Shown piece after piece: positions 10,242 through 33,316 of a DNA stretch of 33,316 nucleotides; the first letter of the stretch is position 1; the number at the start of each line of letters is the position of its first letter. The stretch is from positions 1 through 33,316 of the forward strand of contig JBCCQQ010000065.1 in assembly GCA_039024555.1 (NCBI GenBank). The letters run 5' to 3'. This stretch comes from Cyanobacteria bacterium P01_D01_bin.156 (GTDB lineage: Bacteria; Cyanobacteriota; Cyanobacteriia; Phormidesmidales; Phormidesmidaceae). The notes beneath the pieces were generated by a model. That model worked only from the letters and a program-made list of their open reading frames with translations. It had not been told where the DNA came from and did no database searches. The position numbers were made by a program, and so were the translations under genes.

Positions 10242-10251
10242 CAGTATCTCC

Positions 10252-12087: not shown

Positions 12088-12154
12088 TTCTATCGAAGAA
12101 CTCACTGGCAACCCCTACATATCTCAGCTGGGCATCCTGCCTAAAAATTAGTGC

Positions 12155-12219
12155 TAGGCATTGCGCCTGAACACTTCAGTTAGGCATTGCGCCTAAACAC
12201 TTCAGTTAGGCATTGCGCC
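12155..12219. repeat. 26-bp tandem repeat, 2.5 copies
   Basis: TAGGCATTGCGCCT(G/A)AACACTTCAGT at 12155 and 12181, partial third copy at 12207. Confidence 0.9.
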
Positions 12220-12814
12220 ACCTACAAACCTGTTCAAGAACCAAAACCCTGGTACAGGTACGCGGAAAATTCCAAGCCACCAACTGCGCTGATAAGGGCA
12301 ACAGCTCTACACAGTGGATTAGAAATATTTCCTGATGTGATTGTTAATTAGTGTCAGATAGGCATCCATAACTAATTTCAATATCACATGCGCTGTCTCA
12401 TCCTACCCGATGGTCAGCATCGGTCAAAAACCTCTCTGGCTATCACTTTCAGTCAATTAACATCGATAACAGCCAGCGATTGCTTGACGGATAAGGTGAT
12501 AGCCAGTGGTTAAGCACAGGTACTCAGAGGATATAAATGCCCTGTTGGCTTAACATAAAGCAATGATTGTTAACGACCAGTATTAAATGGTTATAAGTAT
12601 TGGTAATGCTTAACATTAGAGACAATCATTGAGGCTTATATTGTCAAACGGCTTACCCCCTCGTATTCTGAATTGTAGTCATAGAGTTACTGCAAACTAA
12701 CGGTTTGCATGGTGAGTCTTGGTGTTTAAGGCAGTTTTAGACTGGTTTCTGAATCTGAGTTCCAAGACCATAAATGCTTGAACTAAAGCTGATTTATCTA
12801 GGAGATTTGCGACA

Positions 12815-13123
12815 ATGCCGATTGCCGTTGGAATGATTGAAACACGCGGGTTCCCCGCTGTTGTAGAGGCTGCTGACGCGATGGTCAAGGCAGCCCGTGT
12901 GACCCTAGTTGGCTACGAAAAGATTGGTAGCGGTCGTGTAACTGTCATCGTTCGTGGCGACGTATCTGAAGTTCAAGCTTCAGTTGCCGCTGGTATCGAA
13001 TCAGCTAAGCGTGTGAATGGTGGTGAAGTGCTATCCACTCACATTATTGCTCGCCCCCACGAGAACTTGGAGTTTGTGCTGCCTATTCGCTACACCGAAG
13101 CAGTCGAACAGTTCAGAACCTAA
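12815..13123 (+). CDS. ccmK2: Carboxysome shell hexamer CcmK2
   Basis: [29 protein letters not shown]; 102 aa; AGGAG RBS. Confidence 0.93.
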
Positions 13124-13179
13124 CCCATTAGGGCTTGGATTATTACGTCCAATTAGTCAGCATACTAAGGTAAAAAACA

Positions 13180-13518
13180 ATGGCAATCGCAGTAGGAATG
13201 GTTGAGACCCTGGGTTTCCCAGCGGTCGTTGAGGCAGCCGATGCTATGGTCAAGGCAGCCCGTGTGACCCTAGTTGGTTACGAGAAAATCGGTAGTGGTC
13301 GTGTAACTGTTATCGTTCGTGGCGACGTATCTGAGGTTCAGGCTTCAGTTGCTGCTGGTATTGAGAATGTTAAGCGTGTGAACGGTGGTCAAACACTATC
13401 CACTCATATCATTGCTCGCCCCCACGAGAACCTAGAGTTTGTATTGCCTATTCGCTATACCGAGGCTGTTGAGCAGTTTCGCGAAAGCGTTAGCGGCATT
13501 CGTCCCTATGGTAGATAA
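13180..13518 (+). CDS. ccmK1: Carboxysome shell hexamer CcmK1
   Basis: CcmK BMC domain with a 10-aa C-terminal extension. Confidence 0.92.
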
Positions 13519-13521
13519 GGC

Positions 13522-13824
13522 ATGCGCCTAGGAAAGGTTCGTGGCACGGTTGTTAGTACCTGTAAAGAGCCAAGCCTAACGGGCGTTAAGTTCTTGCTAA
13601 TTCAGTTTATTAGTGAGGATGGTGATTTGCTTCCAGATTACGAAGTAGCAGCTGATGTCGTGGGTGCAGGGCCTGGTGAATGGGTTCTGGTTACTCGCGG
13701 CAGCTCTGCCCGTCAGCATCGTGGCTATGAGGAAAGGCCGGTTGATGCTGCTGTAGTTGCCATTGTTGACACCGTTAGTTTGGACTCAGGTTCGCTCTAC
13801 AACAAACGTGAGGATTTCAGTTAG
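13522..13824 (+). CDS. ccmL: Carboxysome vertex pentamer CcmL
   Basis: VRGTVVST.K, VAADVVGAG.GEWVLV.RGSSAR. Confidence 0.93.
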   Translation: MRLGKVRGTVVSTCKEPSLTGVKFLLIQFISEDGDLLPDYEVAADVVGAGPGEWVLVTRGSSARQHRGYEERPVDAAVVAIVDTVSLDSGSLYNKREDFS

Positions 13825-13850
13825 CAGCTTATTTGGGAGGATAGGGGCCG

Positions 13851-15860
13851 ATGGTGCGTAAAGCCATGGCAACATCCCCTGCCCAGTATCAGTCAATGGC
13901 AAAGCCGTTGATTGACCCTACCGCCTTCGTTCATTCGTTTTCTCAGGTCGTAGGTGGTGTATATGTCGGGGCTGAGGTATCTATTGCCCCCGGCACATCA
14001 ATTCGGGCAGATGAGGGATTGCCCTTTTACATCAGTAGTCATTGTGATATTCAGGATGGCGTTGTCATGCACGGCCTTAGTAAAGGCTGTGTGCTTGGTG
14101 ACAATGGCAATTCCTATGCTGTTTGGCTGTCATCTAATGTCACACTTACTCATAAAGTTTTGATTCATGGACCAGCCTACTTAGGTGATGGTTGTTTCGT
14201 TGGTTTTAGGTCAACGATATTCAATGCTCGTTTGGGTGCGGGTGTAATCGTTATGATGCATGCCCTGGTGCAGGACGTGGAAGTTCCGCCGGGTCGATGT
14301 GTTCCATCTGGTGCAGTGATTACTACTCAGGCCCAGGCCGATGCCCTCCCTGCCGTGACTGAGGCAGATTTGGCTTTGGTGAGAGATATAGTTGAGCCCC
14401 ATATTCAGAAGCGATCCCACAGAAAGTCTGTAGGAGGCGCTTCTAATTCATTTAAAGAACATTCCAAATACCCTGACGGTCCAGTCAATACTGTTCCTAT
14501 TCAGGCTGCTCGCCAGGCGGCGAGTGATTCATACACCCAATACACCACCGATACCGTTGGTACAGACACTATGCAAGCACTAGCACCCGAGATTGTTCAA
14601 CAGGTCCGTCAGTTTTTAGCCCAGGGCTACAAGGTTGGTTCGGAGTACGCTGATAAACGACGCTATCGTAGTGGCGTTTGGCAAAGCTGTCCTACCGTAC
14701 AGTCCACCCGTGAAGGGGATGTGCTGTCAGCGCTAGCGGGTTGTCTGGCGGCAAATCAAGGTAGCTATGTGCGTATTTTTGGTATCGACCCCGTGGGTAA
14801 GCGTCGTGTGGGCATGATGACGGTGCAGCGCCCTGATGGTAAGCCCGTGGAAGTAAGCAAAGGCTCGGCAGTTCCTTCTCCATCGTCTACTGGTAATAGC
14901 GGTGGTAGCACTGTCATATTTGGTGATATTGCTGGGCAGGTGCGAGCTTGGTTGCGCCAAGGATACAAGATTGGTACAGAGCATGCGGATCGTCGTCGCT
15001 ATCGCAGTGGTGTTTGGCAAACATGTACTCCCATTGCAACCACTCGCGAAGCCGAGGCAATGGCGGCACTTGAGGGGTGTTTGACGGAGCATTCGGGTGA
15101 GTATGTGCGGATGTTTGGTATTGACCCGATTGCTAAGCGTCGGGTGTCTCCGGTAACTATCCAGCGAGGTGATGGTAAACCGGTTGCTTTGAATAAGAGC
15201 GCCGCTAGTTCTGCGCCTGCGGCGAGCCAGAATGGTGTGGCTCCTACCACCAGTGATGAATTGGTTCCCCAAATTCGCTCGATCTTGGCTCAGGGCCAGA
15301 AGATCGGCATTGAGTTTGCCGATAAGCGTCGTTATCGCAGTGGGATTTGGCAGACGGCCCCCGCCGTTTCTGCCTCTAGCGAGTCTGCTGCTGTAGCAGC
15401 TGTGCAGCAGATATTGGCTGAGCATGCGAATCACTATGTGCGAATTTTTGCCATCAACCCTCGGGTGAAGCAGCGTGGTCGTGCTATTACGGTTCAGAAG
15501 CCTGGTCAGGTTATGGGTGCTGCCAACGGTTCTGCCGCGGCTGCTAAGTCTGCACCCGCTTCCTACAATGGTTCAGCATCTACCAATGGCAGCAGTGCTT
15601 CGGTAAGCTCCGATTTGGCTCAACAGGTGACACAGCTCGTAAATCAGGGCTATCGAGTTAGTACTGAGTATGCGGACAAGCGTCGCTATAGCAGCGGTGC
15701 TTGGCAGACGGGCACTCCTATCAGTGGTAATCGTCCATCTGAGGTAATTGCTGCCCTCAAGGCTCAGCTAGCTGAGTACTCTGGCCACTATGTGCGTCTG
15801 GTGGGTGTTGACCCCCGTGCTAAGTGTCGTGTACTAGAAACCACGATCCAGCGTCCGTAG
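13851..15860 (+). CDS. ccmM: Carboxysome assembly protein CcmM (gamma-CA-like domain plus 4 RbcS-like repeats)
   Basis: Hexapeptide beta-helix N-terminal domain; four QG..IGxE.AD.RRY.SG.WQ repeats; likely internal start ATG 14571. Confidence 0.93.
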
Positions 15861-15888
15861 TCTACACCCTGTCTTTAGGACCGTCGCG

Positions 15889-16590
15889 ATGGAACCCTCG
15901 CCTCTACATTTTGTGAGTCATACCCATTACTATCGCGGCGGCGACGTTGTTATTGATGCGTCGGCTGCTATTGCGCCTGGTGTTGTGTTGCGGGCGGCTC
16001 CGGGTGCTTCTATTCGGGTAGGTGCCGGTGTTTGTGTGGGTGCTGGTGTTGTAATTCAGGCGAAACAGGGGTGTGTCTTTATCGAGTCTGGGGCAAGTCT
16101 GGGTACGGGGGTGCTGGTTGTCGGTCATGGGCATGTGGGTAAAGATGCTTCGGTGGGGCCGTCTAGCACGTTAATGAATCCTGCGATCGCACCAAATGAG
16201 ATTATTCCACCCTGTTCCTTGATTCAAGGAAGCAACAGTCAGGTATCTAGCAATGGTGCTTCTACTTACGAAGAACCCAATCAGTTTCGGGCTCCTGACT
16301 TGAATGGTCATAGTTCGGCAGTGCCCTCTATGCCTATTCCTCCGCGTACATCACCTACGGTTCAGCCCCAGGCCGTTTCTCCAAAAGCTGTTGATGTACC
16401 CGATCTAGAGACGCCTGCTGCCAAAACCGAGGATTTTGACAGTTCAGAACAGCAAACCAATCAAACCTCATCGGCGGTGGTGCAACAAAACGGGTATGTT
16501 TATGGGCGTGACCACTTAAATAATTTGTTGTCTGCTCTATTTCCCCACCGAAAACCCTTGAATAATGGAAATTCGGGTGGTGAATCTTAA
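15889..16590 (+). CDS. ccmN: Carboxysome assembly protein CcmN
   Basis: Hexapeptide repeats, P/S-rich linker, encapsulation peptide VYGRDHLNNLLSALFPH. Confidence 0.92.
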   Translation: MEPSPLHFVSHTHYYRGGDVVIDASAAIAPGVVLRAAPGASIRVGAGVCVGAGVVIQAKQGCVFIESGASLGTGVLVVGHGHVGKDASVGPSSTLMNPAIAPNEIIPPCSLIQGSNSQVSSNGASTYEEPNQFRAPDLNGHSSAVPSMPIPPRTSPTVQPQAVSPKAVDVPDLETPAAKTEDFDSSEQQTNQTSSAVVQQNGYVYGRDHLNNLLSALFPHRKPLNNGNSGGES

Positions 16591-16694
16591 AAAGACTTCT
16601 AGAATAGGGAATACATAATAATCAGTGTTTATTGAATTTAAGTAAGAGATTTTTATCATATTCAAGGCTTGCCTAACGCTACTTGAAACCTACA

Positions 16695-17555
16695 ATGCCA
16701 GCAGAATCCTCCGCTCTTGCCAGCTCCACTGATCAGGCCAGGTCCCTACTGAACCGGGTAAAGGATTCAGCCCTAGGAATTGTTTCAACGACTAGCTTTC
16801 CAGCCATCATTGGTGTTGCCGATGCCATGATGAAGTCTTCGAACGTGTACCTCGTTGGCTACGAAAAAACCGGTGGTGGTCAATGTAGTGCCATTGTTAG
16901 AGGTGGTGTGGCCGATGTTCGCATGGCGGTCCATGCCGGTGTAGAAACCGCCAAACAGTTTGGGCAGTTGGTATCTTCATCTCTGATTCCCAGACCCATG
17001 GCCGACATGGAAAAGGTTCTGCCAATTTTGCCCCGCATTAGCGATTTAGAAGGGGCAGGAGAAACCCATATGAGCAGTGGTGCTGTTGGCCTATTAGAAA
17101 CTCGTGGTTTTCCGGCCATGGTCGGTGCAGCGGATGCCATGACCAAATCTGCCGAGGTGGAATTAATTTCCCACGAAACCATTGGAGAAGGGTTGTGCAC
17201 GATTTTGATTCGTGGGTCGCTATCCAATGTGGCTATTGCCGTTGAAGCCGGAATGCATGAAGCTGAGCGCATTGGTGAGCTCAGCGCGGTGATGGTGATT
17301 CCCCGACCTCTCAATGATTTGGAGCGTAGTCTACCGAAGGTTAAGCAGGTTAAGACCCAGAAACCACAGAAGGTACAGCTACCGCTGAAACTAGGGGAGC
17401 GGCAGAAAGAGCTTATGCCTGCTCAGGCTCCTGCGGTGGAAGTTCAGAAACAAAGACAATTAGATTTGCCTGAAACAGAGTTGGTTCAGGCCCAGCAGCC
17501 TCCCACCATAGAAGTACAGCCGCAAAAGCCATTAGATTTGCCTGAGTTTGAGTAA
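16695..17555 (+). CDS. ccmO: Tandem-BMC shell protein CcmO
   Basis: Two BMC domains (ALGIVSTTSFPAIIG; AVGLLETRGFPAMVG); start ATG 16695 or TTG 16683. Confidence 0.9.
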   Translation: MPAESSALASSTDQARSLLNRVKDSALGIVSTTSFPAIIGVADAMMKSSNVYLVGYEKTGGGQCSAIVRGGVADVRMAVHAGVETAKQFGQLVSSSLIPRPMADMEKVLPILPRISDLEGAGETHMSSGAVGLLETRGFPAMVGAADAMTKSAEVELISHETIGEGLCTILIRGSLSNVAIAVEAGMHEAERIGELSAVMVIPRPLNDLERSLPKVKQVKTQKPQKVQLPLKLGERQKELMPAQAPAVEVQKQRQLDLPETELVQAQQPPTIEVQPQKPLDLPEFE

Positions 17556-21605: not shown

Positions 21606-22784
21606 CTAGAGTTGCTCTTTATATTTCTGAAGTATACGAATTGGCCTCAAAAAATAATACATAAAAGAAAAAGCAGCTGGTAAATCCCAATATGCCTTAT
21701 CTGCTGGTGTTAAAGTGAGCCACCCCGAGTGATTCATTAAGCCTATAAATGTTTTTAACTTATCAGACCAGCGCTCTCGAGTGCGCATATGAAATCGGCT
21801 TCGCTCGACTTCTCCAACTGGAGTAATGGACATTTGAAACAACTGTTGGTTGACTATATTTTCTAGCTCCGTGAGAGCTATTACATCCTTAACCATCCAC
21901 TGAGTTGCGATTTCAGGCAATTCTGCTCCTAACAGATTTTGTGCTAACGTTAGCCCCAGGCTTACTAGGCGTTGATACCCCCAACCCTGAGTTAAGGTGA
22001 TTACTTTATCCCAGTCTAAGGTTGAGCACTCAACTAATGCTGCCACATCGCAGATACGATTGAGATGCCTCCAATGCTCTTTCGTGCCATGCAAGCACAG
22101 CATGATTAAAGTCATTTCTGGTGTCAGACTAGTGATTGTCTGCCCTGCTAGCGATAAAGGCTGTGTATGTTGCCAAACATCCTGATTAGTTAAGGGATGA
22201 GACAGATGTTGAGGCGCAATCAAATTGTGCAGGTCAAGATTATATATACTATCTTTGCGCACTAGATGCGTCTCCCATGGTACCTCGATTTTGGGTTGAT
22301 AACCATCGGCTAGCAACAGATTTTTGGCCGTCTCAAAATCTTCGTCATAAAATAGAAAATCAAGATCACTAATCTGTCGGAGAGAGATATTTTTATAGAC
22401 AGACTGTGCTAGAACTGGACCCTTAAAGGGGAGAACTGCAAGATTTTGATCATCAAAGCGCTTTAATAGGCGACACAACTCTCTTGTTAAGAGCAAATTA
22501 TGATGTGTATTTTGTTGAAGAGAAGAGTTTACATACTCTAAAACATTTGTTGGCAACCTATTTGAGAAAAGCTGCTTTAAGTTCCAACAGATGAGGGGGA
22601 GAATTCCTTGTTGAGTGGCTGTCTGAAAAAATAATGACCAGTCAATGGTGGCTTGCAGCAGTTCCTTGATATAAGAGCAATCCTGTTCTGACAGGTTTAA
22701 TCGTACAACATGCAATATTAAGTTGATTTCTGATGGGTAATCAGTAGAAATCCTGGAGATAGGCTTTGTTATAGAAGCAACCAT
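21606..22784 (-). CDS. Nucleotidyltransferase family protein (lasso cluster tailoring, PsmN-like)
   Basis: FKGPVLA...RQISDLDFL, LDLH, LCLHGTKEHW..L..ICDV. Confidence 0.85.
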   Translation of the reverse strand: MVASITKPISRISTDYPSEINLILHVVRLNLSEQDCSYIKELLQATIDWSLFFQTATQQGILPLICWNLKQLFSNRLPTNVLEYVNSSLQQNTHHNLLLTRELCRLLKRFDDQNLAVLPFKGPVLAQSVYKNISLRQISDLDFLFYDEDFETAKNLLLADGYQPKIEVPWETHLVRKDSIYNLDLHNLIAPQHLSHPLTNQDVWQHTQPLSLAGQTITSLTPEMTLIMLCLHGTKEHWRHLNRICDVAALVECSTLDWDKVITLTQGWGYQRLVSLGLTLAQNLLGAELPEIATQWMVKDVIALTELENIVNQQLFQMSITPVGEVERSRFHMRTRERWSDKLKTFIGLMNHSGWLTLTPADKAYWDLPAAFSFMYYFLRPIRILQKYKEQL

Positions 22785-22853
22785 AGAACTAACGAAGGAT
22801 TATTTAACAGGGAATCAAAATCTGCAATAACTTTTTGATGGGTGACCTACAGA

Positions 22854-24698
22854 CTATTTACCAGTGCCTATAGGAATTATTGGGGCAACTTTGCTATCAG
22901 TGTTGACCTGAGCTGACCAAGACTGGGCGTATAGCCCACCTTGCATAATGAGTTCATCATGATGACCCGATTCTACAATTTGTCCCTCTTTCATAACGTG
23001 TACTATGTCGGCCCTTACTGCTAGGGGAAACCGATGGGTAACTAACAGGGCAGTTCTCCCCTGAGCCACTGTCTGGAATCGATCAATCCATTGCATTTCA
23101 GCCCAAGGGTCCATAGCACTAGTAGGCTCATCCAAGATGATCAGTGGCGCTTGCCTAAAAAAGGCTCGGGCCAAGGCTACCCGCTGCCATTCGCCACCGC
23201 TGAGATCGGTACCGCCGGGAAACATTTTGCCCAGTTGAGATTCATAGCCGTCAGGTAATCGCTGGATAATTTCATCTGCTCCAGCTACCTTTGCGGCTGT
23301 CTTGATACTCTCTTGGGTGGCGTCACGATTAATATCCCCTAAAGAAATGCTTTCGGCAGCACTCAAATAATACGGTACTGGATATTGAAATAGGATTGTA
23401 ATTCTACGTCTCAGTTCTCTTATAGAAAATGATTTTATGTCAACTCCGTTAAGTTCTATAGAGCCACGTTCTGGATCATAAAATCGGCATAATAACTTAG
23501 TCAGAGTACTCTTCCCAGCGCCATTATCTCCTACGATAGCAACAACTTTTCCAATCGGTATAGTCAAATTAAAACTATTGAGTATGAATCGCTGACTACC
23601 TGGATATCGAAATGATACATTCTTGAAACGAATTTCCCCAGAGATATTTGAGATTGGTTGAGGCTCAATGGGATCAAAGATGGTAGGTTGTAGATCGAAA
23701 AATTTGAATAAGTCGTCTATAAATAATTGGTTGCGATGGAACTGATTTAAATTGGTCATTACTGTACGCATCATTCCCTGGCTTCTATTTAAGGCTTGAT
23801 AGAATAATGCCAAATCACCTAAAGTAATAGCTCCTAACAGTGCCTGTTCAAACATCCAGAAAAAAGCAAAACCTGTCATAGCAAAACTTACAAGGCTTGC
23901 CACTAGACGCCTGACACTCTGACGACTGATTAAATTTAACTGTTCAGTCCGTAAACGATGTCTTATCTCTTGATAAGACGTCTGAAAAAAATCTCCTAGA
24001 CTAAAAAGTCTGACTTCCGGGGCCGACATGGAGTGAGTCAAAAGCTGTTCTTGATACTGTAACCATCGACGATCGGTTGTTGTATTGATTTGCCACCGAT
24101 ATTGTTCACGGTTGAGCCGTACTGCAATTATCAAGATTGGTAAAGCGCTAGCAATAATAAGAAACGGCATCCAGCTGCTGTAAGATAGCAAGACTGCTGC
24201 CATCGATAACAACGTCAAACTATTTTGCAAAAAGCTGCCGACGCTGTTGATCAGTGACAATGTCTGACCGCTAGCTCCATTTCTAATTCGGTTGAGATGA
24301 TCGTAATAATCAGAAGACTCGTAGCATGCTAGATCAATCTCAACTGACTTTTGGTGAATCAACTGACTGAGATGGTCATTGACTAATTCAGATTGTTGAG
24401 TGCGTACAAGGGTTGCTATATTTTGTAATACTTCCGATAGTATCAGGATACCTGCCATCAGGCTGACTGGTAAAAGCACATGGTTTATGGTGGCTTGTGA
24501 AAAGCCTTGGCCCATCACACTACTTAGGTCATCCACTAGCCACCGAGTAGTATAAACACTAGCGATGGGGATCAATCCCTGAACCAACAGTAAACCCGCC
24601 CAAGCCATTGTCCAATAGCGTGAAGCGGCCCAAATTAGCCGAAAGGTTTTATAAATTTGGGTAAGTTGGTGGCTAAATTGTTGATAACGTAAATACAC
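22854..24698 (-). CDS. ABC exporter, fused permease and ATPase (lasso D protein)
   Basis: TM domain, GDNGAGKST, LSGGEWQR, ILDEP. Confidence 0.92.
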   Translation of the reverse strand: MYLRYQQFSHQLTQIYKTFRLIWAASRYWTMAWAGLLLVQGLIPIASVYTTRWLVDDLSSVMGQGFSQATINHVLLPVSLMAGILILSEVLQNIATLVRTQQSELVNDHLSQLIHQKSVEIDLACYESSDYYDHLNRIRNGASGQTLSLINSVGSFLQNSLTLLSMAAVLLSYSSWMPFLIIASALPILIIAVRLNREQYRWQINTTTDRRWLQYQEQLLTHSMSAPEVRLFSLGDFFQTSYQEIRHRLRTEQLNLISRQSVRRLVASLVSFAMTGFAFFWMFEQALLGAITLGDLALFYQALNRSQGMMRTVMTNLNQFHRNQLFIDDLFKFFDLQPTIFDPIEPQPISNISGEIRFKNVSFRYPGSQRFILNSFNLTIPIGKVVAIVGDNGAGKSTLTKLLCRFYDPERGSIELNGVDIKSFSIRELRRRITILFQYPVPYYLSAAESISLGDINRDATQESIKTAAKVAGADEIIQRLPDGYESQLGKMFPGGTDLSGGEWQRVALARAFFRQAPLIILDEPTSAMDPWAEMQWIDRFQTVAQGRTALLVTHRFPLAVRADIVHVMKEGQIVESGHHDELIMQGGLYAQSWSAQVNTDSKVAPIIPIGTGK

Positions 24699-24794
24699 AG
24701 GTTAGAGAATCCTACAGGCTAAGGGAAGTAATCAGGTATTACTTGAGCAAGTTGTTTGATTAGAATTTTCTTGAATAGTCGAATTTAGGTTTAT

Positions 24795-25739
24795 TTAAAT
24801 AACATTTTGCACAGTCATCTTCTGAGATGATTGTGCATTTTTGACATGAGTTTCAACTAGTTGGGCTATGTTATCCAAATCATTAAGCGCATTTTTTCGC
24901 TTAAGAAAAAAGACAGGAACCTGTTTTAATATGCGAGTGCAACGTAGAAAATGATCAGACTTGCTTGTAACATCAAATATAGAACTACCAAAGCGAGCAC
25001 AGTACCAGTTACGCATAAGGGCATTCAGGGCCTGAGTACCAGATGGAGTCTCAATGTTGAGTGTTGCTCCTCCTGCTAATAGATAAATATGTTTGAGTGG
25101 CTGGGCAGCTTTTACTAAGCTTTTTTTAGACTGAAAATCTCGTTTGTCAATTTCAGGATGGAGCTTTGATAAACCCTCTGGTTGTTGCCCTAAGGCAAAA
25201 GCTGACTCTGGCCATAGTTTAAGTTGCCCATACCCTGGTAAAAGCATAGCTTGATGTGGATTACTCAAATCGATGGCTGTGACATCATCGGAAAAAAATG
25301 GATAACCGCGTTTATGCAAGGCTCCGGCAGTAGTTGACTTTCCCCATCCTTTGTTACCCATAAAGGCTACTGCACATCCATTTAAGGAAACAGAGCTTGC
25401 ATGTAATACAAATAGATTCCTTTGATGCAACAGCATTCCTAGACCGGCTCCTAATAAGAAGAGCCGTACTACATTTTTATCTGCATCTGGAAGGAGATTT
25501 AGAACGATTTCAGTCCCATTCCTAATCAGGAAAGTACCTATAAAAGGCCAATGCAAATAGACTTCATCCTTTTTGGGTGCTGCAACAAGGCATTGAGTTT
25601 GAGTTGATATAAAGTCAGGAGGTATAAAATCTCCTCGACTAATTGTGACATCTGTTGTTACAGCATCATTTAACGGACTTAATTCCGGCAAAAGCAATTC
25701 AGAGCAAATGGTTAAATTGTAAGCTCGGTAGAAAAACAT
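24795..25739 (-). CDS. HPr-kinase-like lasso peptide kinase (PadeK/PsmK-like)
   Basis: VLHAS, GNKGWGKST Walker A, SDD. Confidence 0.85.
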   Translation of the reverse strand: MFFYRAYNLTICSELLLPELSPLNDAVTTDVTISRGDFIPPDFISTQTQCLVAAPKKDEVYLHWPFIGTFLIRNGTEIVLNLLPDADKNVVRLFLLGAGLGMLLHQRNLFVLHASSVSLNGCAVAFMGNKGWGKSTTAGALHKRGYPFFSDDVTAIDLSNPHQAMLLPGYGQLKLWPESAFALGQQPEGLSKLHPEIDKRDFQSKKSLVKAAQPLKHIYLLAGGATLNIETPSGTQALNALMRNWYCARFGSSIFDVTSKSDHFLRCTRILKQVPVFFLKRKNALNDLDNIAQLVETHVKNAQSSQKMTVQNVI

Positions 25740-25800
25740 TTTCTTTCGCCGTAAATTATGAGGTTGCGTGTCTTGGAAAAAGCTGCCTTAAAGAAATAGT

Positions 25801-25834
25801 AAAAAATGCTTAGCCCCCGTTTTACCGGAGGCTA
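25801..25834 (-). terminator. Stem-loop with U-tract downstream of the precursor gene
   Basis: Minus strand TAGCCTCCG-GTAAAA-CGGGGGCTA-AGCA-TTTTTT. Confidence 0.6.
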
Positions 25835-25895
25835 GCTTGAGTCATCAAACTGAACTTTAGAAACTTTTTAGTCAGCTGAGAAACTCAATTACTCA

Positions 25896-26072
25896 CTATG
25901 ATCCACAGGCAAAGCCGAAGTCTTTTCTGTCGCACTTAGGGCCGAATACGCCGTCAGTACCATCAGCACCAAAGAAGGCATCTTCAACGAGATTACGTGT
26001 GCCTAAGGTGATCTCTTCGACGTCACCATGGACGATAAGAGCAGGTGCAGAGTAAGCTTTCTTCGTGTTCAT
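25896..26072 (-). CDS. Lasso peptide precursor (58 aa; not in ORF track)
   Basis: MNTKKAYSAPALIVHGDVEEITL/GTRNLVEDAFFGADGTDGVFGPKCDRKDFGFACGS*; GGAG RBS; YxxPxL leader motif, Thr at -2, Gly1, E7/D8. Confidence 0.93.
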   Translation of the reverse strand: MNTKKAYSAPALIVHGDVEEITLGTRNLVEDAFFGADGTDGVFGPKCDRKDFGFACGS

Positions 26073-26164
26073 TTATTTTCTCCAAATTGCTAACTGTTTT
26101 CTTGCATATTTCAAATCATTTTCTACTTAGGGTCTAGACATCACCTCCTTATTTGATCAAAAAT

Positions 26165-28117
26165 TTATTGAACATAACCTATCTGGAGACGTGGCGATAG
26201 TGCAGGTTGTTCATTTTGTTGATAACCTAACCACAGGCTTAGGACAATGATTTGCCACAGGGCTAAGTTTTTTTCTGATAATTTTTCATAGTTAAAATCT
26301 TTTTTTGTTGACCTTAATCTTGACAAATCAATATAGGGTTCTAGCTGACCTGACTCGTCAGAAAAAATGGCTTGGAGGTCAATATGCTTCTGGGTGATTA
26401 AGGTGTGACAAAAGTTATAGCCCAGATTGCCTTTGTCAGAACGCCAGCATACGTTGCTAGGCAGATGATTGTGCAAAGCTCGTCGGACAATCATGCGCGA
26501 TCGCCCATCTTGGATACGCTGATCGCTGGGTAGGGCCAAGCAAAACTCTGCTAATCGTCGGTCTGCAAAGGGAAATGTTGGCTCAATCGCAAAACTCATA
26601 CCTGCTTTACTGGCAATTTCTAGGGCCAACGGCATATCCCCAGAAAGCAAATCCCGGAAGCGACGATTTTTAGAAACACTCAAGTAAGGTAGAGGCTTAT
26701 ATTTGTCGGCACGCAGTCTACTGGGTAGAGAAATTCGTTCGACAAAGCTGGGGTTGATGAGAGCATAGTTGTCTTCAGGAGTAACTGGAGATGTCTGCCT
26801 TCTTGAACGTCGCCAGGCTTTTTTAAGTATGTTGGGAATTTTTTGTTTTAGGCTAAGTTCCCAGAGATAGCTTTTGAGAAGACTTGGAAATGAGTAGCCG
26901 GGCTGTCGCTTAGCTATCCCGTATAGCTGTTTGATTAGTGGGTAGTATTGGTCTGCCTGGGCTAAATCGATTAGATATTCCCATCCATGGCAGACTACAT
27001 TGTCCCCCATATACCCGTCGAGAAAAACCCTCACTCCCTGTTGTTGGGCAGCGCTGTAAAGACCACAGTGCATAAATAAATTGGGTGTTGCAAAGGGCTC
27101 ATCCTGATGCCAAAGCATCTTTTCAATTTGCGTTAGGGGATTTAGTCGATCAGCGCGTACAAAGTGAGGTTGTACCCCCCCTCGGTCGATTACCGCTTGA
27201 ATATAAGGACGTTCATCACTTTCAGGAACATCATCAAATACAGCTGAGAATGTGTGTAGAGGGTCTCGATTTTGCTGGGCTAGTTCTGCTTGAGCAACGC
27301 CTACAATAGAGGAAGAATCTAAGCCTCCACTCAAAGCAGATCCGATGGGATAAGCGCTACGCAAACGACATTTCACCGCCTTAGAAAAAATATCTAAATA
27401 GGCTTCTGCATATTCAGTTGCAGATGCTGGTTCAAGCTCTCTATTAGGGTCAAGAGACCAGAAAGGTTCGATGAGAAAGCGATTAGGGCTTACGATCAGC
27501 CGATGGGCTGGCGGTAGACGAAAAATATCTTGATAAAAGGTAATCGCCTTATCATTCAGCAATGAAGCTAGATGATCTCCTACCCTCACTTCATTGAGAC
27601 GTTGGGGCACCTGAGGCAGACAAAACAGTCCTTTAATTTCGGAACTAAACGTAAAGAGCTTTCGGGGGCCGTAGTGATAATAAAAAGGCCTTGCACCAAA
27701 GTAATCCCGAGCACAGAAAAGGATCTGATTGCGCCCATCCCAAATAGCAAAGGCAAAATCCCCCAACAGCTTTTCTGGACAGCGCTCTCCCCACTTCTCA
27801 TAAGCTGCCAGGATGATTTCACTGTCGGCCAATGGCTTTGAAGCATGGCTTTCTAGCTCCAAAGCCACGATCAGCTCATCTCGATTATCAATACGGGCAT
27901 CGGCGGTAATGGTGAGGGCACCCCGCTGCAGAGGCAGCTGTTCTGTTAGAGATTCTGGCGTGGTCCACAGCATGCGATGGCCTAATCCCACATTGCCAGA
28001 GGTCCAAATATCAGCCCCGTCAGGTCCCCGATGAGCTAGCCTATCCACCATGTTTGTCATCATGGTTGGTTCGACCGGGCGTCCATCTATGTAATATGTG
28101 CCAACAATGCCACTCAT
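26165..28117 (-). CDS. Lasso peptide cyclase (asparagine synthetase-like C protein)
   Basis: MSGIVG (no N-terminal Cys), HRGPDG, ALSGGLDSSS; adjacent to B1, B2 and the precursor. Confidence 0.92.
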   Translation of the reverse strand: MSGIVGTYYIDGRPVEPTMMTNMVDRLAHRGPDGADIWTSGNVGLGHRMLWTTPESLTEQLPLQRGALTITADARIDNRDELIVALELESHASKPLADSEIILAAYEKWGERCPEKLLGDFAFAIWDGRNQILFCARDYFGARPFYYHYGPRKLFTFSSEIKGLFCLPQVPQRLNEVRVGDHLASLLNDKAITFYQDIFRLPPAHRLIVSPNRFLIEPFWSLDPNRELEPASATEYAEAYLDIFSKAVKCRLRSAYPIGSALSGGLDSSSIVGVAQAELAQQNRDPLHTFSAVFDDVPESDERPYIQAVIDRGGVQPHFVRADRLNPLTQIEKMLWHQDEPFATPNLFMHCGLYSAAQQQGVRVFLDGYMGDNVVCHGWEYLIDLAQADQYYPLIKQLYGIAKRQPGYSFPSLLKSYLWELSLKQKIPNILKKAWRRSRRQTSPVTPEDNYALINPSFVERISLPSRLRADKYKPLPYLSVSKNRRFRDLLSGDMPLALEIASKAGMSFAIEPTFPFADRRLAEFCLALPSDQRIQDGRSRMIVRRALHNHLPSNVCWRSDKGNLGYNFCHTLITQKHIDLQAIFSDESGQLEPYIDLSRLRSTKKDFNYEKLSEKNLALWQIIVLSLWLGYQQNEQPALSPRLQIGYVQ

Positions 28118-28162
28118 AAGCTGTATTGCCTAACTGACAGATGAGGAGGGAGGGAGAACGCT

Positions 28163-28603
28163 TTAAAGACCAATGCTCTTTAATGAGGGGAGGGGGGTAA
28201 AGTCGCTAAGACCAGGTAAATTACCGATCAAAACTTTGTTCTGATGTTCTATCCAGGCATGGGCTGCCAGCTGCCCCTGACCATTCTTGGCGATGCCAAT
28301 ATACAACTGGTTACTATAGCCCCAACGATTAAATAGCACCTGGGCGGTCAATGCTTTAGCTAGGCACTTCGCTTGCTTGGGAGTATATCGACTGCTAGCT
28401 TCAACAGACCAGATAATTTTATTCAGAGGTATCCGAAATTTATTTTGAGAACCCTCAAAAGACAGCTTTGCCAAAATATTCCTGAGTCTCTGAAAAGGAA
28501 ATAACCATAAGCCTAATCGCACACCATGTAGAAGCATGGTCGTTTGTAGCAGTAGCCATCGATCCTCAGCTGTCAAGCGAAACAGCTTACGCACAAACCC
28601 CAT
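28163..28603 (-). CDS. Lasso peptide leader peptidase B2 (transglutaminase-like)
   Basis: KCLAKAL catalytic Cys, AHAWIE. Confidence 0.92.
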   Translation of the reverse strand: MGFVRKLFRLTAEDRWLLLQTTMLLHGVRLGLWLFPFQRLRNILAKLSFEGSQNKFRIPLNKIIWSVEASSRYTPKQAKCLAKALTAQVLFNRWGYSNQLYIGIAKNGQGQLAAHAWIEHQNKVLIGNLPGLSDFTPLPSLKSIGL

Positions 28604-28913
28604 AGTTCACCTCAATCAGATTAACGGCGTCCAAATCTGTGAGAATCTTTTGAAGATCTCGATCAAGAATCTCCGGTGCTACATCATACTCATGCAATAT
28701 AGTTTCGCGTATATCGCTAACGACTATCGTATCCTGAACCAGTTCCCATATTCTGATGCCCACACCAGTCAACCCATAGTAGACTCCAGAGTCAAGATGT
28801 AGTATGACGGATTCATCTCCCAGCTCAGATGAAATTTGACCGCTACACGCCTTGATGGAGGCGCTGAGCCAATTACTAGAAAGGTTTTGAGAAGCAGCGT
28901 AACTATTTTCCAT
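28587..28913 (-). CDS. Lasso RiPP recognition element B1 (PqqD family)
   Basis: ESVILHLDSGVYYGLTGVGIRIWELV...EYDV...LDRDL; overlaps the B2 start. Confidence 0.92.
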   Translation of the reverse strand: MENSYAASQNLSSNWLSASIKACSGQISSELGDESVILHLDSGVYYGLTGVGIRIWELVQDTIVVSDIRETILHEYDVAPEILDRDLQKILTDLDAVNLIEVNYGVCA

Positions 28914-29511
28914 GAGCAACGCGAGTATTTTTCATGAGGTTTTCAGAGAAGAAGAGCACATACCTCAACCAGAGAACTTACAGGCTATCTGGTAAATTTG
29001 ATGAACTCCTAGAACCAGGCTCAGCCTGGCGAAACGTAAACTGTCCAACATTCGCATTAGCCACAATTAAGCAACTCAGCAAATTGAGAAACATAGGCTT
29101 GCGTTTTCACCCACCAACCACGTGCTCTTATTCAAACACCTTGATAGATAATCGAATATGGCAACTGGGATTCTCAAGCCACACGGAATAGAATTTATCG
29201 TTATTTTATAAAGAAAGATTATTCTGCATACTTCATAGCTCAGACTTCGACCGTTATATCGTGCGATCAAGCGGATTTTTTGCCTGATTTGCCTTCATAG
29301 GCTTCACCATACCTTTACATTAATACTCATGTATAAATTAGTACTTATGATCGTACGTCCTTGTTAAGAAAAACGCCGTTGCTGATTTATAGGATGGACC
29401 GATCTGACGATGTTCTGCTGTGCCAGACTCTTTCAGAAAAAATTATCCTGAGGAGCAGCAACGCCCTATTTAATTTATAGTAGCTCCGTTGTCCAGGCCT
29501 ACAAAATTCCC

Positions 29512-30267: not shown

Positions 30268-30837
30268 TTATGCATCCATAAAACCTTTGAGGGCAGCAAC
30301 CACGGGTTTAACTACTGGATGATCGATAGCTTCTTCTAGAGCGGTGCTTCCACCTTCTTTAAGAGCATTGATGACTCGGACTTTAAGGGTGGGATTGTTG
30401 TCAACGGATTCCACAAGTTTGGCTGTCATCATGGTTTGGCCGACAGGTGTGGTAGCGTCGTAGTCGGTTTCGAGCTGGGTCAGTAATTCTTTAATGTCTT
30501 TGGCAGCTTGGGCAAGGTCTTGGCTGTTGTTGATTTGGGTGTTGATTTTGTCCCCCATAACCTTATCGCCTCCGATGTTGTCGCCGGAGCCATATTGGTG
30601 GATAGTGTTGCCCATGATTAACTCTCCTGGTGTGTAAATTAGCTTGAGTACTTGGTTGGTATGGAGGGGAAGCATAGCGTAGGTTTGGCCATGATCATCG
30701 CTGAATTCGACTTCGTAGACATCAGCGGCTAATTCTTCGATAAGGGTGCCGACTTGGCCAGCCGTGAGATTGTGTTCGGGGAGGTCGTCTTTAAGGGTAA
30801 TGACGTCGAGTGGCTGTAGGTTGACTAGTGAATTCAT
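30268..30837 (-). CDS. DUF4926-like domain fused to a G/N/D-rich motif and a helical domain
   Basis: LDVITLKDDLPEHNL.AGQVGTLIE...YEVEFSDDHG.TYAML; then MGNTIHQYGSGDNIGGDKV; then QDLAQAAKDIKELL...NPTLKVRVINALKEGG. Confidence 0.8.
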   Translation of the reverse strand: MNSLVNLQPLDVITLKDDLPEHNLTAGQVGTLIEELAADVYEVEFSDDHGQTYAMLPLHTNQVLKLIYTPGELIMGNTIHQYGSGDNIGGDKVMGDKINTQINNSQDLAQAAKDIKELLTQLETDYDATTPVGQTMMTAKLVESVDNNPTLKVRVINALKEGGSTALEEAIDHPVVKPVVAALKGFMDA

Positions 30838-30880
30838 TGGGAGTGGTTGGTTACTCTCAGGATAGCGTTAGATTTTACTT

Positions 30881-33175
30881 TTACGTGCCTGTTTTATTCC
30901 CTTCTACTAAGTCTCCCGCAACATTGTCGCCGTCACCCTGTTGGATGATTTTAGTAGGAGTGTTAGTAACGGAAATGTTGACTCCGTCGCTAGAGTTGTC
31001 TACGTTAACACCTTTGCGTCGAAGAATTCGGGTGTCCATGGACTCATATCCATTAAGGAGCTGGCGTAGGTTGAGTTTGAGCTTGAGTTTCCCAATGACA
31101 ACATTTTGTTCACCCATGTCTTCTAGGCCAAGCAGTTCTTGATAATCGAGGGGGGGATGGTCAGAATGATCAGGGACTGGCACCCATTCGCTAGGTTTGG
31201 CAAAGTTGGCATGAATTTTTTTGAATGTGTCGCGGATGAGACCCAGAAATAGCCTACGGGTGGATTCTTTGCCGCTGATGGCGATAAAGATTTTGTTGTC
31301 GGCGGGGTCGGCTTTGATGCGAGCGATGTTGTAGACTTCGTCACCCTCTGTGTAGGCGAGCATGACACCGCTGCGCCAATAGGTTTGCTGGTGGATTTTG
31401 TCGTGCATCAACACAATAAATCGGGATATAACGCTATCGGGTAAGATAGTGTAGTGATACTGAAACTCTAAAGGGTCGCCTTCTAATCCTGTTTCTTTAG
31501 GTTCCTCTTTAGGTAAAATGCCGGGGATTAGGTAGCGATCAGGTTTACATTCAGGTAGCTGAAAACAGAGTTGGAACTCTTGCATCAGTTCAATGAGATA
31601 AGTATGTCGCTGCTCTGGATAGCGAGCGGTGGGGAGGATGCGTGTGAGGTCGGCTAGGGAGAGTTGGCCTTTAGACTCGGTTTTTAGGTCGTCATCGCTG
31701 AGTAGGGTGTAGATGCCGGTGGTGACCCAGTCTGGGTTGAGGACATTAGTGTGTTTTAGCAGGGGATGGTCGCTGTAGTTGAGCACCAGACCCAGATTAT
31801 GGAGTAAGTTGATTAACTGAGTCTGGTCTTTTTCTTCTTCGATGCCTTGCTGGTCGCAGATACTTTCATATTTGGAGTATTTGATAAAGTCTTTATCTAA
31901 GTTTTCAAGTTGTTCTTTGACTTCAAACCAAGAGAGAGGTAATAGGTCATAGACTTCTTTGAGTTGACCCACCTCTTGGAGGATGGCCTGGTTAAGGTCG
32001 TCAATGCCAGTCCCTTTGAAACAAGAGGTTTCAATGATGGCTTTTATATTTGGATATTTTTCTCGCAAGGCTTTACGGTTGATATCGAGGGGCTGCTCAT
32101 CGCGCTTGTTGCCGACGATGATAACAGGGGCATTATCGCCGAAACTTTTGATCAGCTTTAGCCAGTAGTCCAGGCGATTTTCCTCTTCACTGGTGCGGCA
32201 GTTGCAGACGAGCAGGTAGAGACTGCGCTTGGTGAGGAAGAACTGGTGGGTAGCATGGTAGATTTCTTGACCACCAAAGTCCCACACATTGAGGCGAACG
32301 TCCTTAGTATTAACGCTGATTTTCCAATTAGTAACATTGAGCCCATCGGTTTGTTCTTCATTGGGATTAAAGCGATTCTTAATAAGACGGTTGATTAGGG
32401 AAGTTTTACCAACGCTACCTTGACCGACAAGAATCAGTTTCGCTTCATTAAGAGGACGTACATCACCGCTGCGAAGCTGACGGCAATAATTAAAAACTCT
32501 CTCAGCGTTTTTGGACTTAGTAAAACCTGATAAAATTTCTGGCGAAATAGGAAGAGGATTATCAATCAAATAAAAAAGTGTAAGGTTTGAGAGAGTTTCC
32601 AAGCTTTCGGGAATATTTTTGATTTTATTTTGACCAAGAGCAAGCTGTTTTAAAGAAGTTAGTTTTGCTAGAGAGTCTGGAATGACCGTGATCTGGTTCC
32701 TATGAAGAAAGAGTACTTGTAGCGCAGTGAGCTTTGCTATAGAGTCTGGAATCTTTATGATTCGATTCTGATAAAGACGGAGGATTTTAAGAGAGGCAAG
32801 CTGAGCTAAGGAATCTGGGATGACCGTGATTTGGTTCGAGCTGAGGTTGAGCTGTTGTAGAGAGGCAAGCTGAGCTAAGGAATCTGGGATGACCGTGATT
32901 TGATTCGAGCTGAGGTAGAGCTGTTGTAGAGAGGCAAGCTGAGCTAAGGAATCTGGGATGACCGTGATTTGGTTCGAGCTGAGGTCGAGCTGTCGTAGCT
33001 TTTGTAAGTTTCTTACATCTTCAGATATTTCAGTTAGCTCACTAGTTAAGACTATTAGAGTTTCTAACTGGGTTAGAGTAGCAACCTCACTTGGTAGTGT
33101 TTCCCAAGGGTTACCGCTGAGGTCTAAATAATTCAGATTATGTAGCCTCTTGATATTGCTTGGTAGGCTTGTCAA
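30881..33175 (-). CDS. LRR-Roc-COR (Roco) GTPase, 5' end interrupted by IS
   Basis: 23-aa LRRs, GQGSVGKTS, WDFGGQ, GNKRD, COR; the ORF begins mid-LRR (LTSLPSNI) right beside the IS end. Confidence 0.9.
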   Translation of the reverse strand: MTSLPSNIKRLHNLNYLDLSGNPWETLPSEVATLTQLETLIVLTSELTEISEDVRNLQKLRQLDLSSNQITVIPDSLAQLASLQQLYLSSNQITVIPDSLAQLASLQQLNLSSNQITVIPDSLAQLASLKILRLYQNRIIKIPDSIAKLTALQVLFLHRNQITVIPDSLAKLTSLKQLALGQNKIKNIPESLETLSNLTLFYLIDNPLPISPEILSGFTKSKNAERVFNYCRQLRSGDVRPLNEAKLILVGQGSVGKTSLINRLIKNRFNPNEEQTDGLNVTNWKISVNTKDVRLNVWDFGGQEIYHATHQFFLTKRSLYLLVCNCRTSEEENRLDYWLKLIKSFGDNAPVIIVGNKRDEQPLDINRKALREKYPNIKAIIETSCFKGTGIDDLNQAILQEVGQLKEVYDLLPLSWFEVKEQLENLDKDFIKYSKYESICDQQGIEEEKDQTQLINLLHNLGLVLNYSDHPLLKHTNVLNPDWVTTGIYTLLSDDDLKTESKGQLSLADLTRILPTARYPEQRHTYLIELMQEFQLCFQLPECKPDRYLIPGILPKEEPKETGLEGDPLEFQYHYTILPDSVISRFIVLMHDKIHQQTYWRSGVMLAYTEGDEVYNIARIKADPADNKIFIAISGKESTRRLFLGLIRDTFKKIHANFAKPSEWVPVPDHSDHPPLDYQELLGLEDMGEQNVVIGKLKLKLNLRQLLNGYESMDTRILRRKGVNVDNSSDGVNISVTNTPTKIIQQGDGDNVAGDLVEGNKTGT
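32792..32998 (-). repeat. Three near-identical 69-bp tandem repeats encoding LRRs
   Basis: Units 32792-32860, 32861-32929 and 32930-32998 encode L(R/Q)QL(D/Y/N)LSSNQITVIPDSLAQLAS. Confidence 0.92.
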
Positions 33176-33176
33176 C

Positions 33177-33316
33177 GGGACTGTACAGAATTTTGTGTAA
33201 GCGATCTATCATCCATGTACATCAGGAGATCGCCCCATGGCCCGCAAGAAAAAAGAACCGAACCGCGTTGATGACTTACTAGACGAACTGCTGGAAGACT
33301 GCGCTACCCCGGAGGA
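33177..33316 (+). mobile_element. IS256-family insertion sequence, left end (runs off window)
   Basis: End sequence GGGACTGTACAGAATTTTGTGTAAG resembles IS256-family terminal repeats; transposase-like ORF follows. Confidence 0.8.
33237..33316 (+). CDS. IS256-family transposase N-terminus (partial)
   Basis: AGGAG RBS then MARKKKEPNRVDDLLDELLEDCATPE. Confidence 0.75.
   Translation, partial: MARKKKEPNRVDDLLDELLEDCATPE

Follow-up and report, generated by a model that had tools for sequence, protein, structure and literature searches.

The window analysed here, a stretch of 33,316 nucleotides that is the whole of contig C65 of Cyanobacteria bacterium P01_D01_bin.156, harbors near its end a gene for a Roco protein, with leucine-rich repeats (LRR) followed by a Roc GTPase and a COR domain, and, next to it on the same strand, a gene encoding a small helical protein. 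The two products share a short motif (motif A), located at the C-terminus of the former and at the N-terminus of the latter. The two-gene module is real and conserved, and its best reading is that of a new variant of amyloid-type signaling; with a probability of about 60%, it is a two-component immune signaling module of reversed polarity, made up of a Roco as receptor and four-helix effectors from an unnamed family. The genes are paired, and their products, by analogy with known systems, may assemble and be toxic.

The receptor-side copy (IIQQGDGDNVAGDLVEGNK) and the effector-side copy (IHQYGSGDNIGGDKVMGDK) can be aligned without gaps, with 11 of 19 residues identical, five of these 11 being specified by different codons. 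The motif, its position and these counts, first reported in a sequence-only reading of the window, were borne out by re-reading and alignment; so was the claim that conservation acts on the protein, since 34 identical bases out of 57 and five synonymous changes rule out a recent DNA duplication as the source of the two copies. The last 25 residues of the Roco align with the next gene with a score of 60 (BLOSUM62, local). The same genome has 4,791 stop-to-stop frames with lengths of 150 amino acids (aa) or more; among these, a score of at least 60 against the Roco tail was reached only by the Roco itself and by this gene, the next best being 47. Both the strict and the loose motif patterns match these two genes, and the strict one has one extra match in the genome, on contig C38, which looks unrelated. 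The alignment of 30 Roco tails gave the consensus Q-x-G-x-G-D-N-[VIF]-[AG]-G-D-x-V-x-G-[ND]-K, with Q, G, D, N, and D invariant. The motif has a five-residue period, and at least three pentads are present in 33 of 42 effectors vs. 11 of 42 receptors; HET-s-type pairs likewise have more repeats on the effector side (bioRxiv 10.1101/2020.01.06.895854, accessible part).

The conservation of this arrangement was surveyed in the best 80 of 419 related loci (numbered with the prefix L), retrieved with a query that contained the motif, which favors motif-ended Rocos. The Roco C-terminus is a motif in 45 of the 80 loci (42 motif A and three variants), a fused helical domain in 30 (27 of a type referred to as HD2 and three of the type found in the present effector, HD1), and something else in the remaining five. 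A helical-domain gene lies on the same strand 0.12–1.5 kb downstream of 44 of the 45 motif-ended Rocos, the exception having just 57 nt of contig left. These partner genes encode HD1 in 20 loci and HD2 in 24, and the motif is in frame with them by pattern in 42 of 44 cases; in L088 a variant was recognized by eye, and in L138 a frameshift follows the motif. None of the 30 fused Rocos has a downstream partner gene (25 of them with at least 1.9 kb visible). Among the five Rocos with other ends, one whose tail appears TIR-like by eye (L136) precedes a 47-aa remnant of HD2. The spacer between Roco and effector varies (DUF6883/DUF4926, XisH/XisI, RelB-like/ParE, a BrnT pair, or none), and both copies of the motif persist while effector type and spacer genes change; where the motif is a variant one, it is altered on both partners (L087, L088, L112, L232, and L218). 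Within this clade of Rocos, what follows COR is either a fused effector domain or a bare motif, and a bare motif is accompanied by a nearby gene, on the same strand, for the same motif and a four-helix domain; the rule is strong, not absolute. A role of the motif as a generic linker was rejected because of these pairing counts.

Matched motifs are also found where the neighbor is not a Roco. The 61 free HD1 genes were reduced to 59 with neighbors, to 45 by discarding near-copies, and to 38 by discarding motif A and Roco or helical-domain neighbors. In this set, 25 genes out of 38 score at least 40 against a terminus of their own neighbor, vs. 77 of 1,406 mismatched pairs, with a mean of 54.7 vs. 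24.9 ± 1.7 after shuffling; the own neighbor ranks first in 18 of the 38 loci, kin loci not being independent. Together with the 44 of 45 Rocos, this enrichment answers the expectation that the motif co-occurs in adjacent receptor and effector genes. The 25 matched partners include 14 DUF6232 proteins (two under the cut-off), four HEAT, one TPR, one NB-ARC, one caspase, and one pentapeptide protein, and three without a family. DUF6232, for which the literature search found no naming paper, is the commonest non-Roco partner, each member with its own matched motif (L007, L025, L028, L030, L152, L159, L165–L168, L172, L176, and L182). A second such pair (L153; contig C38, 2489–3726, minus strand) exists in the genome under study, where the C-terminal motif of a DUF6232 protein, itself scoring below the Pfam cut-off, and the N-terminus of a neighboring HD1 protein of 112 aa align with a score of 64. 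In eight loci (L024, L026, L029, L055, L146, L160, L162, and L163), the motif of the HD1 protein has its match at the N-terminal end of the product of the next gene downstream (NB-ARC, TPR, HEAT, or unassigned), the motif being N-terminal in both partners.

Many cyanobacterial Rocos have a C-terminal tail made of the motif followed by HD1, all-in-one Roco-motif-HD1 proteins being common, and for this reason the split of a single-gene ancestor, the alternative named in the sequence-only reading, needed testing. The 27 fused HD2 tails all lack motif A and contain another N/Q-rich stretch, whereas the motif stands at the head of all 24 free HD2 genes (one frameshifted); in a second sample, it is present in none of 10 fused HD2 forms and in both free ones located beside a Roco (one frameshifted). 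Since the motif heads free HD2 genes yet is absent from fused HD2 tails, cutting a fused gene cannot give this pattern, and a plain split is contradicted. In a quick tree of 98 COR regions, for which 20 of the fused HD1 rows were hand-picked, the architecture labels are clustered and switch repeatedly, the starred branches forcing at least five changes for two-gene HD1 and six each for two-gene HD2 and fused HD2. The idea of Roco and effector as a gene pair holds insofar as the two-gene form is conserved; it has to be qualified in that all-in-one proteins are also common and the receptor of this strain is interrupted.

The fused genes themselves carry signals at the motif. In 43 fused Roco frames, the residue preceding it is M in 25, V in seven, and neither in six (five escaped the pattern); all seven V codons are GTG, vs. 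171 of 964 V codons in the background, where 370 of 3,557 windows have M. Shine-Dalgarno pairing of -5 kcal/mol or better was obtained for 34 of 57 pre-domain windows vs. 20 of 113 control windows, and a conserved in-frame ATG or GTG with a Shine-Dalgarno-like site is seen at the motif start of long fused genes (e.g., L051, L054, L105, L118, L122, and L139). This enrichment of M, GTG, and Shine-Dalgarno sites suggests that all-in-one genes also make a free effector from an internal start; the alternative is that these signals are relics of recent fusion.

Concerning the effector domains, HD1 is modeled by AlphaFold2 (AF2) as four helices, with a predicted local distance difference test score of 90.7. 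Its profile collects 1,709 representatives at E ≤ 0.001, corresponding to 1,709 clusters at 50% identity, and the domain is C-terminal in 138 of 150 representatives. Of 401 genomes sampled from the phylum, 60 had an HD1 match (one query), as did 85 of 151 genomes of the organism's own order (profile), and HD2 was matched in 19 of 201 genomes; the named records with related loci belong mostly to filamentous genera, and the 104 pattern matches in viral contigs include no confirmed relative. Foldseek returned no match at E ≤ 0.001 for either model, a wide structure search with HD1 reached a best Z of 5.6, and a search of PDB sequences with its profile gave a catenin as best hit (E = 0.0035). Kinship of the effector to Bell, HeLo, or Bab found no backing in Pfam or in these structure searches, the comparison being made without a Bell profile. 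The structural check proposed with the sequence-only reading gives a confident four-helix fold and no clear structural relative. Similarities below the curated cut-offs link DUF4404 (PF14357) with HD1 (best E = 0.022, two of 25 members) and TCAD2 (PF19971) with HD2 (best E = 0.042, two of 18 members); on these sequence matches, a remote kinship of HD1 and HD2 to DUF4404 and TCAD2 is likely, the Atlas scores of 0.87–0.88 toward the two families being leads only. A search for the TCAD2 family in five genomes gave no match anywhere, its controls being likewise unmatched. Profile comparison of HD1 with HD2 (probability 6%, E = 0.006) leaves their mutual kinship unproven.

It has been proposed that bacterial Rocos are counter-invader proteins with a variable C-terminal effector after COR (PMC8195603, accessible part); the motif occupies this very position. 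In the proposed mechanism, the LRRs would sense an invader cue, and the Roc-COR switch would cluster the receptor, thus gathering the C-terminal motifs; these might then act as a template on which the motif at the N-terminus of the effector (115 aa, made from a start codon of its own) would form a cross-beta polymer. The helical domains brought together in this way, ending in an amphipathic (HD1) or hydrophobic (HD2) helix, could cause membrane damage or cell arrest; all-in-one genes would probably also yield free effector via the internal start. HD2 has a helix of transmembrane-like hydropathy (1.3–2.6). The 35 residues preceding HD1 (133 representatives) show an excess of G (13.5 vs. 6.0%), N (13.4 vs. 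6.5%), and Q (7.0 vs. 4.0%) and a deficit of L (2.6 vs. 10.8%) and P (1.1%). The complex prediction with three effector copies and the Roco tail scored 0.00 without controls and counts neither way, and the promoter and terminator scan gave counts at or below chance. A broader and more tentative proposal is that bacterial relatives of LRRK2 and DAPK are amyloid-seeding receptors, whose Roc-COR would nucleate a C-terminal cross-beta motif able to convert four-helix killers with N-terminal motifs. This would be a reverse-polarity counterpart of BASS/Bell, possibly used also by DUF6232 membrane proteins and repeat proteins, with all-in-one genes making both seed and effector via a conserved internal start codon, and with some loci perhaps freeing an RNase toxin by trapping a motif-fused antitoxin.

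A number of observations weigh against amyloid-type signaling by a Roco-effector pair. The survey contains kin loci, so that its counts overstate independence. In an independent sample of 29 loci, chosen by COR-B score alone from about 140 matches in 70 of 201 genomes, just three of the five motif-ended Rocos have a partner: L223 (motif A, the same locus as L056), L232 (variant motif), and L218 (another motif, present in matching form on the two partners). L234 is an orphan, without a partner in 4.6 kb, and L215 shows a two-gene spacer and a partial motif near a contig end, with no full partner. In L084, a Roco without the motif precedes an unrelated protein ending in motif-HD1, and 13 of the 38 free HD1 genes have no matching neighbor. 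Within the motif-A set, own partners score 73.7 vs. 70.6 for shuffled ones (p = 0.001), and this matching is gone without the variant loci (p = 0.20); motif A is therefore one interchangeable family. As regards the effector, V and I, which are enriched in BASS motifs, are barely increased before HD1, whose hydropathy is modest (best 19-residue mean of 0.6–1.2); PADLOC gave no effector match, and neither HD1 nor HD2 has a clear structural relative among killing domains. A globular tag placed C-terminal to PUASM, HELLF, and RHIM motifs blocked foci in Podospora (PMC9815663, accessible part), and the effector described here shares this motif-then-globular geometry. Lastly, the retention of the beta motif between COR and the helical domain in fused forms is also explained by a linker role.

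Three other explanations were weighed. In the first of them, which we regard as unlikely, the two motifs would dock homotypically without forming amyloid, their G-D-x-V-x repeats jointly completing a short, fixed-size beta-solenoid or beta-roll, and the helical domain would be an adaptor similar to the effector-associated domains of Aravind's conflict systems. All the pairing evidence fits docking equally well, and so do the five-residue period and the many charged residues of the motif, the presence of HD1 as the C-terminal domain of pentapeptide, CHAT, and Roco proteins, as expected of an adaptor, and the weak likeness to TCAD2 and DUF4404. However, the paired motifs form many families of 20–30 residues with a G/N/Q bias, which is a hallmark of amyloid signaling motifs, and it is the helical domain that is conserved, while the beta motif is variable yet matched. 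The whole arrangement might also be a by-product of gene shuffling, in which a Roco-motif-HD tail was duplicated, toxin-antitoxin modules were inserted between the two copies, and the Roco copy lost its domain, leaving its motif as a relic; the internal ATG and Shine-Dalgarno site of fused genes would be relics of re-fusion. We consider it improbable that such a history accounts for five invariant residues kept on the Roco side, a few residues from the stop, across the Leptolyngbya, Nostoc, and Microcoleus groups, for the codon differences at five of the 11 shared residues, for the absence of motif A from 27 of 27 fused HD2 tails when it heads every free HD2 gene, and for unrelated neighbors such as DUF6232 with matched motifs of other families. 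Shuffling does agree with the abundance of all-in-one Roco-motif-HD1 proteins, the coexistence of fused and free copies in L052, L054, L060, and L178, the frequent architecture switches on the tree, the orphan motif of L234, and the broken Roco of this strain.

The release of an RNase toxin as the main output has an equally small chance of being correct. According to this explanation, a motif-tethered antitoxin or immunity protein would be trapped in a Roco-seeded polymer and the toxin would be freed, as in chaperone-addicted toxin-antitoxin systems. In 25 of the 44 two-gene loci, the effector shares its frame with a complete DUF4926, 15 of these loci having DUF6883 upstream; DUF2283 (L054, L056, and L060) and the gene following BrnT (L087 and L112) are fused likewise, and DUF6883/DUF4926 follow none of 25 fused Rocos. 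On the other hand, DUF6883 is absent from 26 of the 44 two-gene loci, DUF4926 is decayed or absent in the close relatives L061, L063, L067, L068, and L069, the XisH/XisI and RelB-like/ParE spacers are unfused, and the effector retains its own start signal. At the locus in the window toxin release cannot apply, because DUF6883 is missing there.

The organization of this locus is reported in Table 1. The Roco has Pfam matches to Roc (1e-33), COR-A (2e-42; aa 413–554), COR-B (1e-31; aa 569–709), and LRR_8 (2e-30), and the succession of a Roc GTPase and COR places it in the Roco family; its closest relative by COR in the quick tree is that of Leptothoe kymatousa (92%). The first ~84 codons lie on contig C13, beyond an insertion sequence (tblastn with the closest relative, L065), where the N-terminal piece is followed by a similar element end, and GTTGACA flanks the element on both sides; on this sequence evidence, the receptor is 5'-interrupted in this strain and probably not working. 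The insertion sequence, presumably IS256-like, has copies 99–100% identical at or near the ends of eight other contigs, and its 26-aa open reading frame (ORF) piece matched no Pfam or NCBIfam family. The start of the Roco of the relative L062 (34–130) resembles the reverse reading of the same element end, suggesting a separate insertion in the LRR region. Gene pairing and polarity, as claimed for a Roco receptor with a C-terminal motif preceding a helical effector, are borne out, the receptor itself being broken in this strain. The next ORF (30268–30837, 189 aa), separated from the Roco stop by 43 nt, contains DUF4926 (aa 10–63), Met76, the motif, and the 86-residue HD1, all in frame. Met76 is invariant in 12 of 12 aligned effectors, and the 115-aa effector appears, from its sequence, to have its own start signal inside the DUF4926 fusion. 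The small helical effector with the motif in front is a 115-aa frame within an ORF that, as read, is a DUF4926 fusion. DUF4926 has been proposed as the immunity protein of the DUF6883 RNase toxin (bioRxiv 10.64898/2026.08.28.747851, accessible part); a DUF6883 gene precedes DUF4926 in 18 of the 44 related two-gene loci and is not present in this one, where a toxin-immunity pair is accordingly not recognized.

Table 1. Features of the Roco-effector locus in the window.
Feature	Positions	Strand	Remarks
Receptor-side motif A	30893..30949	-	Three residues before the Roco stop
Effector-side motif A	30547..30603	-	N-terminus of the 115-aa protein starting at 30615
HD1 four-helix domain	30271..30528	-	AF2 model; no Pfam, NCBIfam, or PADLOC family
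Roco receptor (LRR-Roc-COR-A-COR-B)	30881..33175	-	764 aa as read here; Pfam
Roc GTPase domain	32099..32440	-	aa 246-359; PF08477
COR-A + COR-B	31049..31939	-	aa 413-709; PF16095, PF25497
DUF4926	30649..30810	-	PF16277, 9e-21; in frame with the effector
AGGAG Shine-Dalgarno-like site	30624..30628	-	8 nt before Met76, within the DUF4926 frame
Multicopy insertion sequence end	33177..33316	+	Starts at ~33177; ORF start at 33237

Other loci and genes deserve mention. In-frame fusions of the effector to the second spacer gene (DUF4926, DUF2283, the gene after BrnT, and one unassigned) occur in L054, L056, L060, L087, L112, L232, and L237. In L031 and L035/L084, from the same genus, a different N-terminal domain without a Pfam family is fused to motif-HD1, the L031 fusion lying opposite a gene that resembles the 2OG-Fe(II) oxygenase gene next to the effector in the window. 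The genome of the window encodes three further Rocos without the motif (L141, L142, and L144, on contigs C23, C31, and C1), ending in other domains, two of them TIR-like by eye. Elsewhere in the window, asparagine synthase-like, PqqD, transglutaminase-like, HPr kinase-like, ABC, and nucleotidyltransferase genes (21606–28919, minus strand) form what we take to be a lasso-peptide-type cluster, and positions 7522–17555 contain ordinary CO2-uptake NDH genes with ChpXY and carboxysome genes (BMC, RuBisCO-small repeats).

In comparison with known systems, the fused Roco forms are probably already tabulated, and the motif pairing was not found in print. In the prokaryotic AP-GTPase (Roco) conflict systems (Kaur et al. 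2021, PMC8195603), LRR+AP-GTPase+COR is followed by a variable C-terminal effector, as here; the source data (Fig. 6) list cyanobacterial LRR+AP-GTPase+COR+DUF4404 and +TCAD2 proteins, the COR+DUF4404 forms being from Nostoc, Microcoleus, and Moorea. These entries are probably the all-in-one forms seen here, matched by description and not by sequence. Unlike the present work, the accessible part of that study (30 of 205 DUF4404 places) contains only fused forms and describes no shared motif or two-gene form; DUF4404 is not in its main text, and the literature search found no papers on this family. No prior account of motif pairing or of a Roco-linked amyloid motif was found, including in the accessible parts of PMC7159879, PMC12261475, PMC13506858, and 10.64898/2026.10.19.760177; the bioRxiv supplements (BASS Table S2 and BASS11 tables) and subscription papers out of reach may bear on novelty.

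For the output of bacterial Rocos, the motif pair offers a concrete, testable candidate. If amyloid-type signaling is correct, the LRRK2 family would be tied to this kind of immunity, Rocos would represent a third receptor class after NOD-like receptors (NLRs) and Agp, with reversed geometry, and bacterial amyloid signaling would gain many new families of motifs as well as an effector family that is large and unnamed. RHIM-bearing sensors and adaptors of animals (ZBP1 and TRIF, for example) have an amyloid motif after the sensing domain and use it to recruit a separate effector. The layout described here is similar, with an effector that is not a kinase, and RHIM (PF12721) gave no match in the Pfam scans of these proteins.

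In the BASS/Bell-NLR pairs (bioRxiv 10.1101/2020.01.06.895854, accessible part), too, the receptor and a small helical protein are encoded side by side and collinearly and have in common a G/N/Q-rich motif of ~20–25 aa, many motif families and all-in-one forms exist, and filamentous cyanobacteria are among the hosts; within-pair identity is 58% here vs. 43–56% in cross-seeding BASS pairs. The region before HD1 shares the G/N/Q-rich, L/P-poor composition of BASS motifs, except for V and I. Six motif-A strings of 7–8 residues, searched as exact strings, have no occurrence in the stored portion of the PMC8086366 supplement with BASS sequences. The suggested comparison with BASS and RHIM gives a BASS-like composition and neither a RHIM match nor an exact occurrence of these strings in that portion. 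The receptor here is LRR-Roc-COR with a C-terminal motif and not NACHT or NB-ARC with an N-terminal one (in L162, an HD1 locus elsewhere, the neighbor is an NB-ARC protein with an N-terminal match), the effector motif precedes the helical domain, whereas Bell has an N-terminal domain and a C-terminal motif, the effector has no family match, and toxin-antitoxin spacer genes often lie between the partners. In Bab/Agp (BASS11; bioRxiv 10.1101/2024.11.07.622273, accessible part), a non-NLR sensor signals via an amyloid motif to a ~110-aa helical killer in phage infection; the Agp motif is N-terminal and the Bab motif C-terminal, the sensor is TPR-GreA/B-C-PIN, and the word "GTPase" does not occur in that text. 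The Roco module would work like BASS/Bell-NLR and Bab/Agp but departs from two defining features of BASS, i.e., the type of receptor and the polarity.

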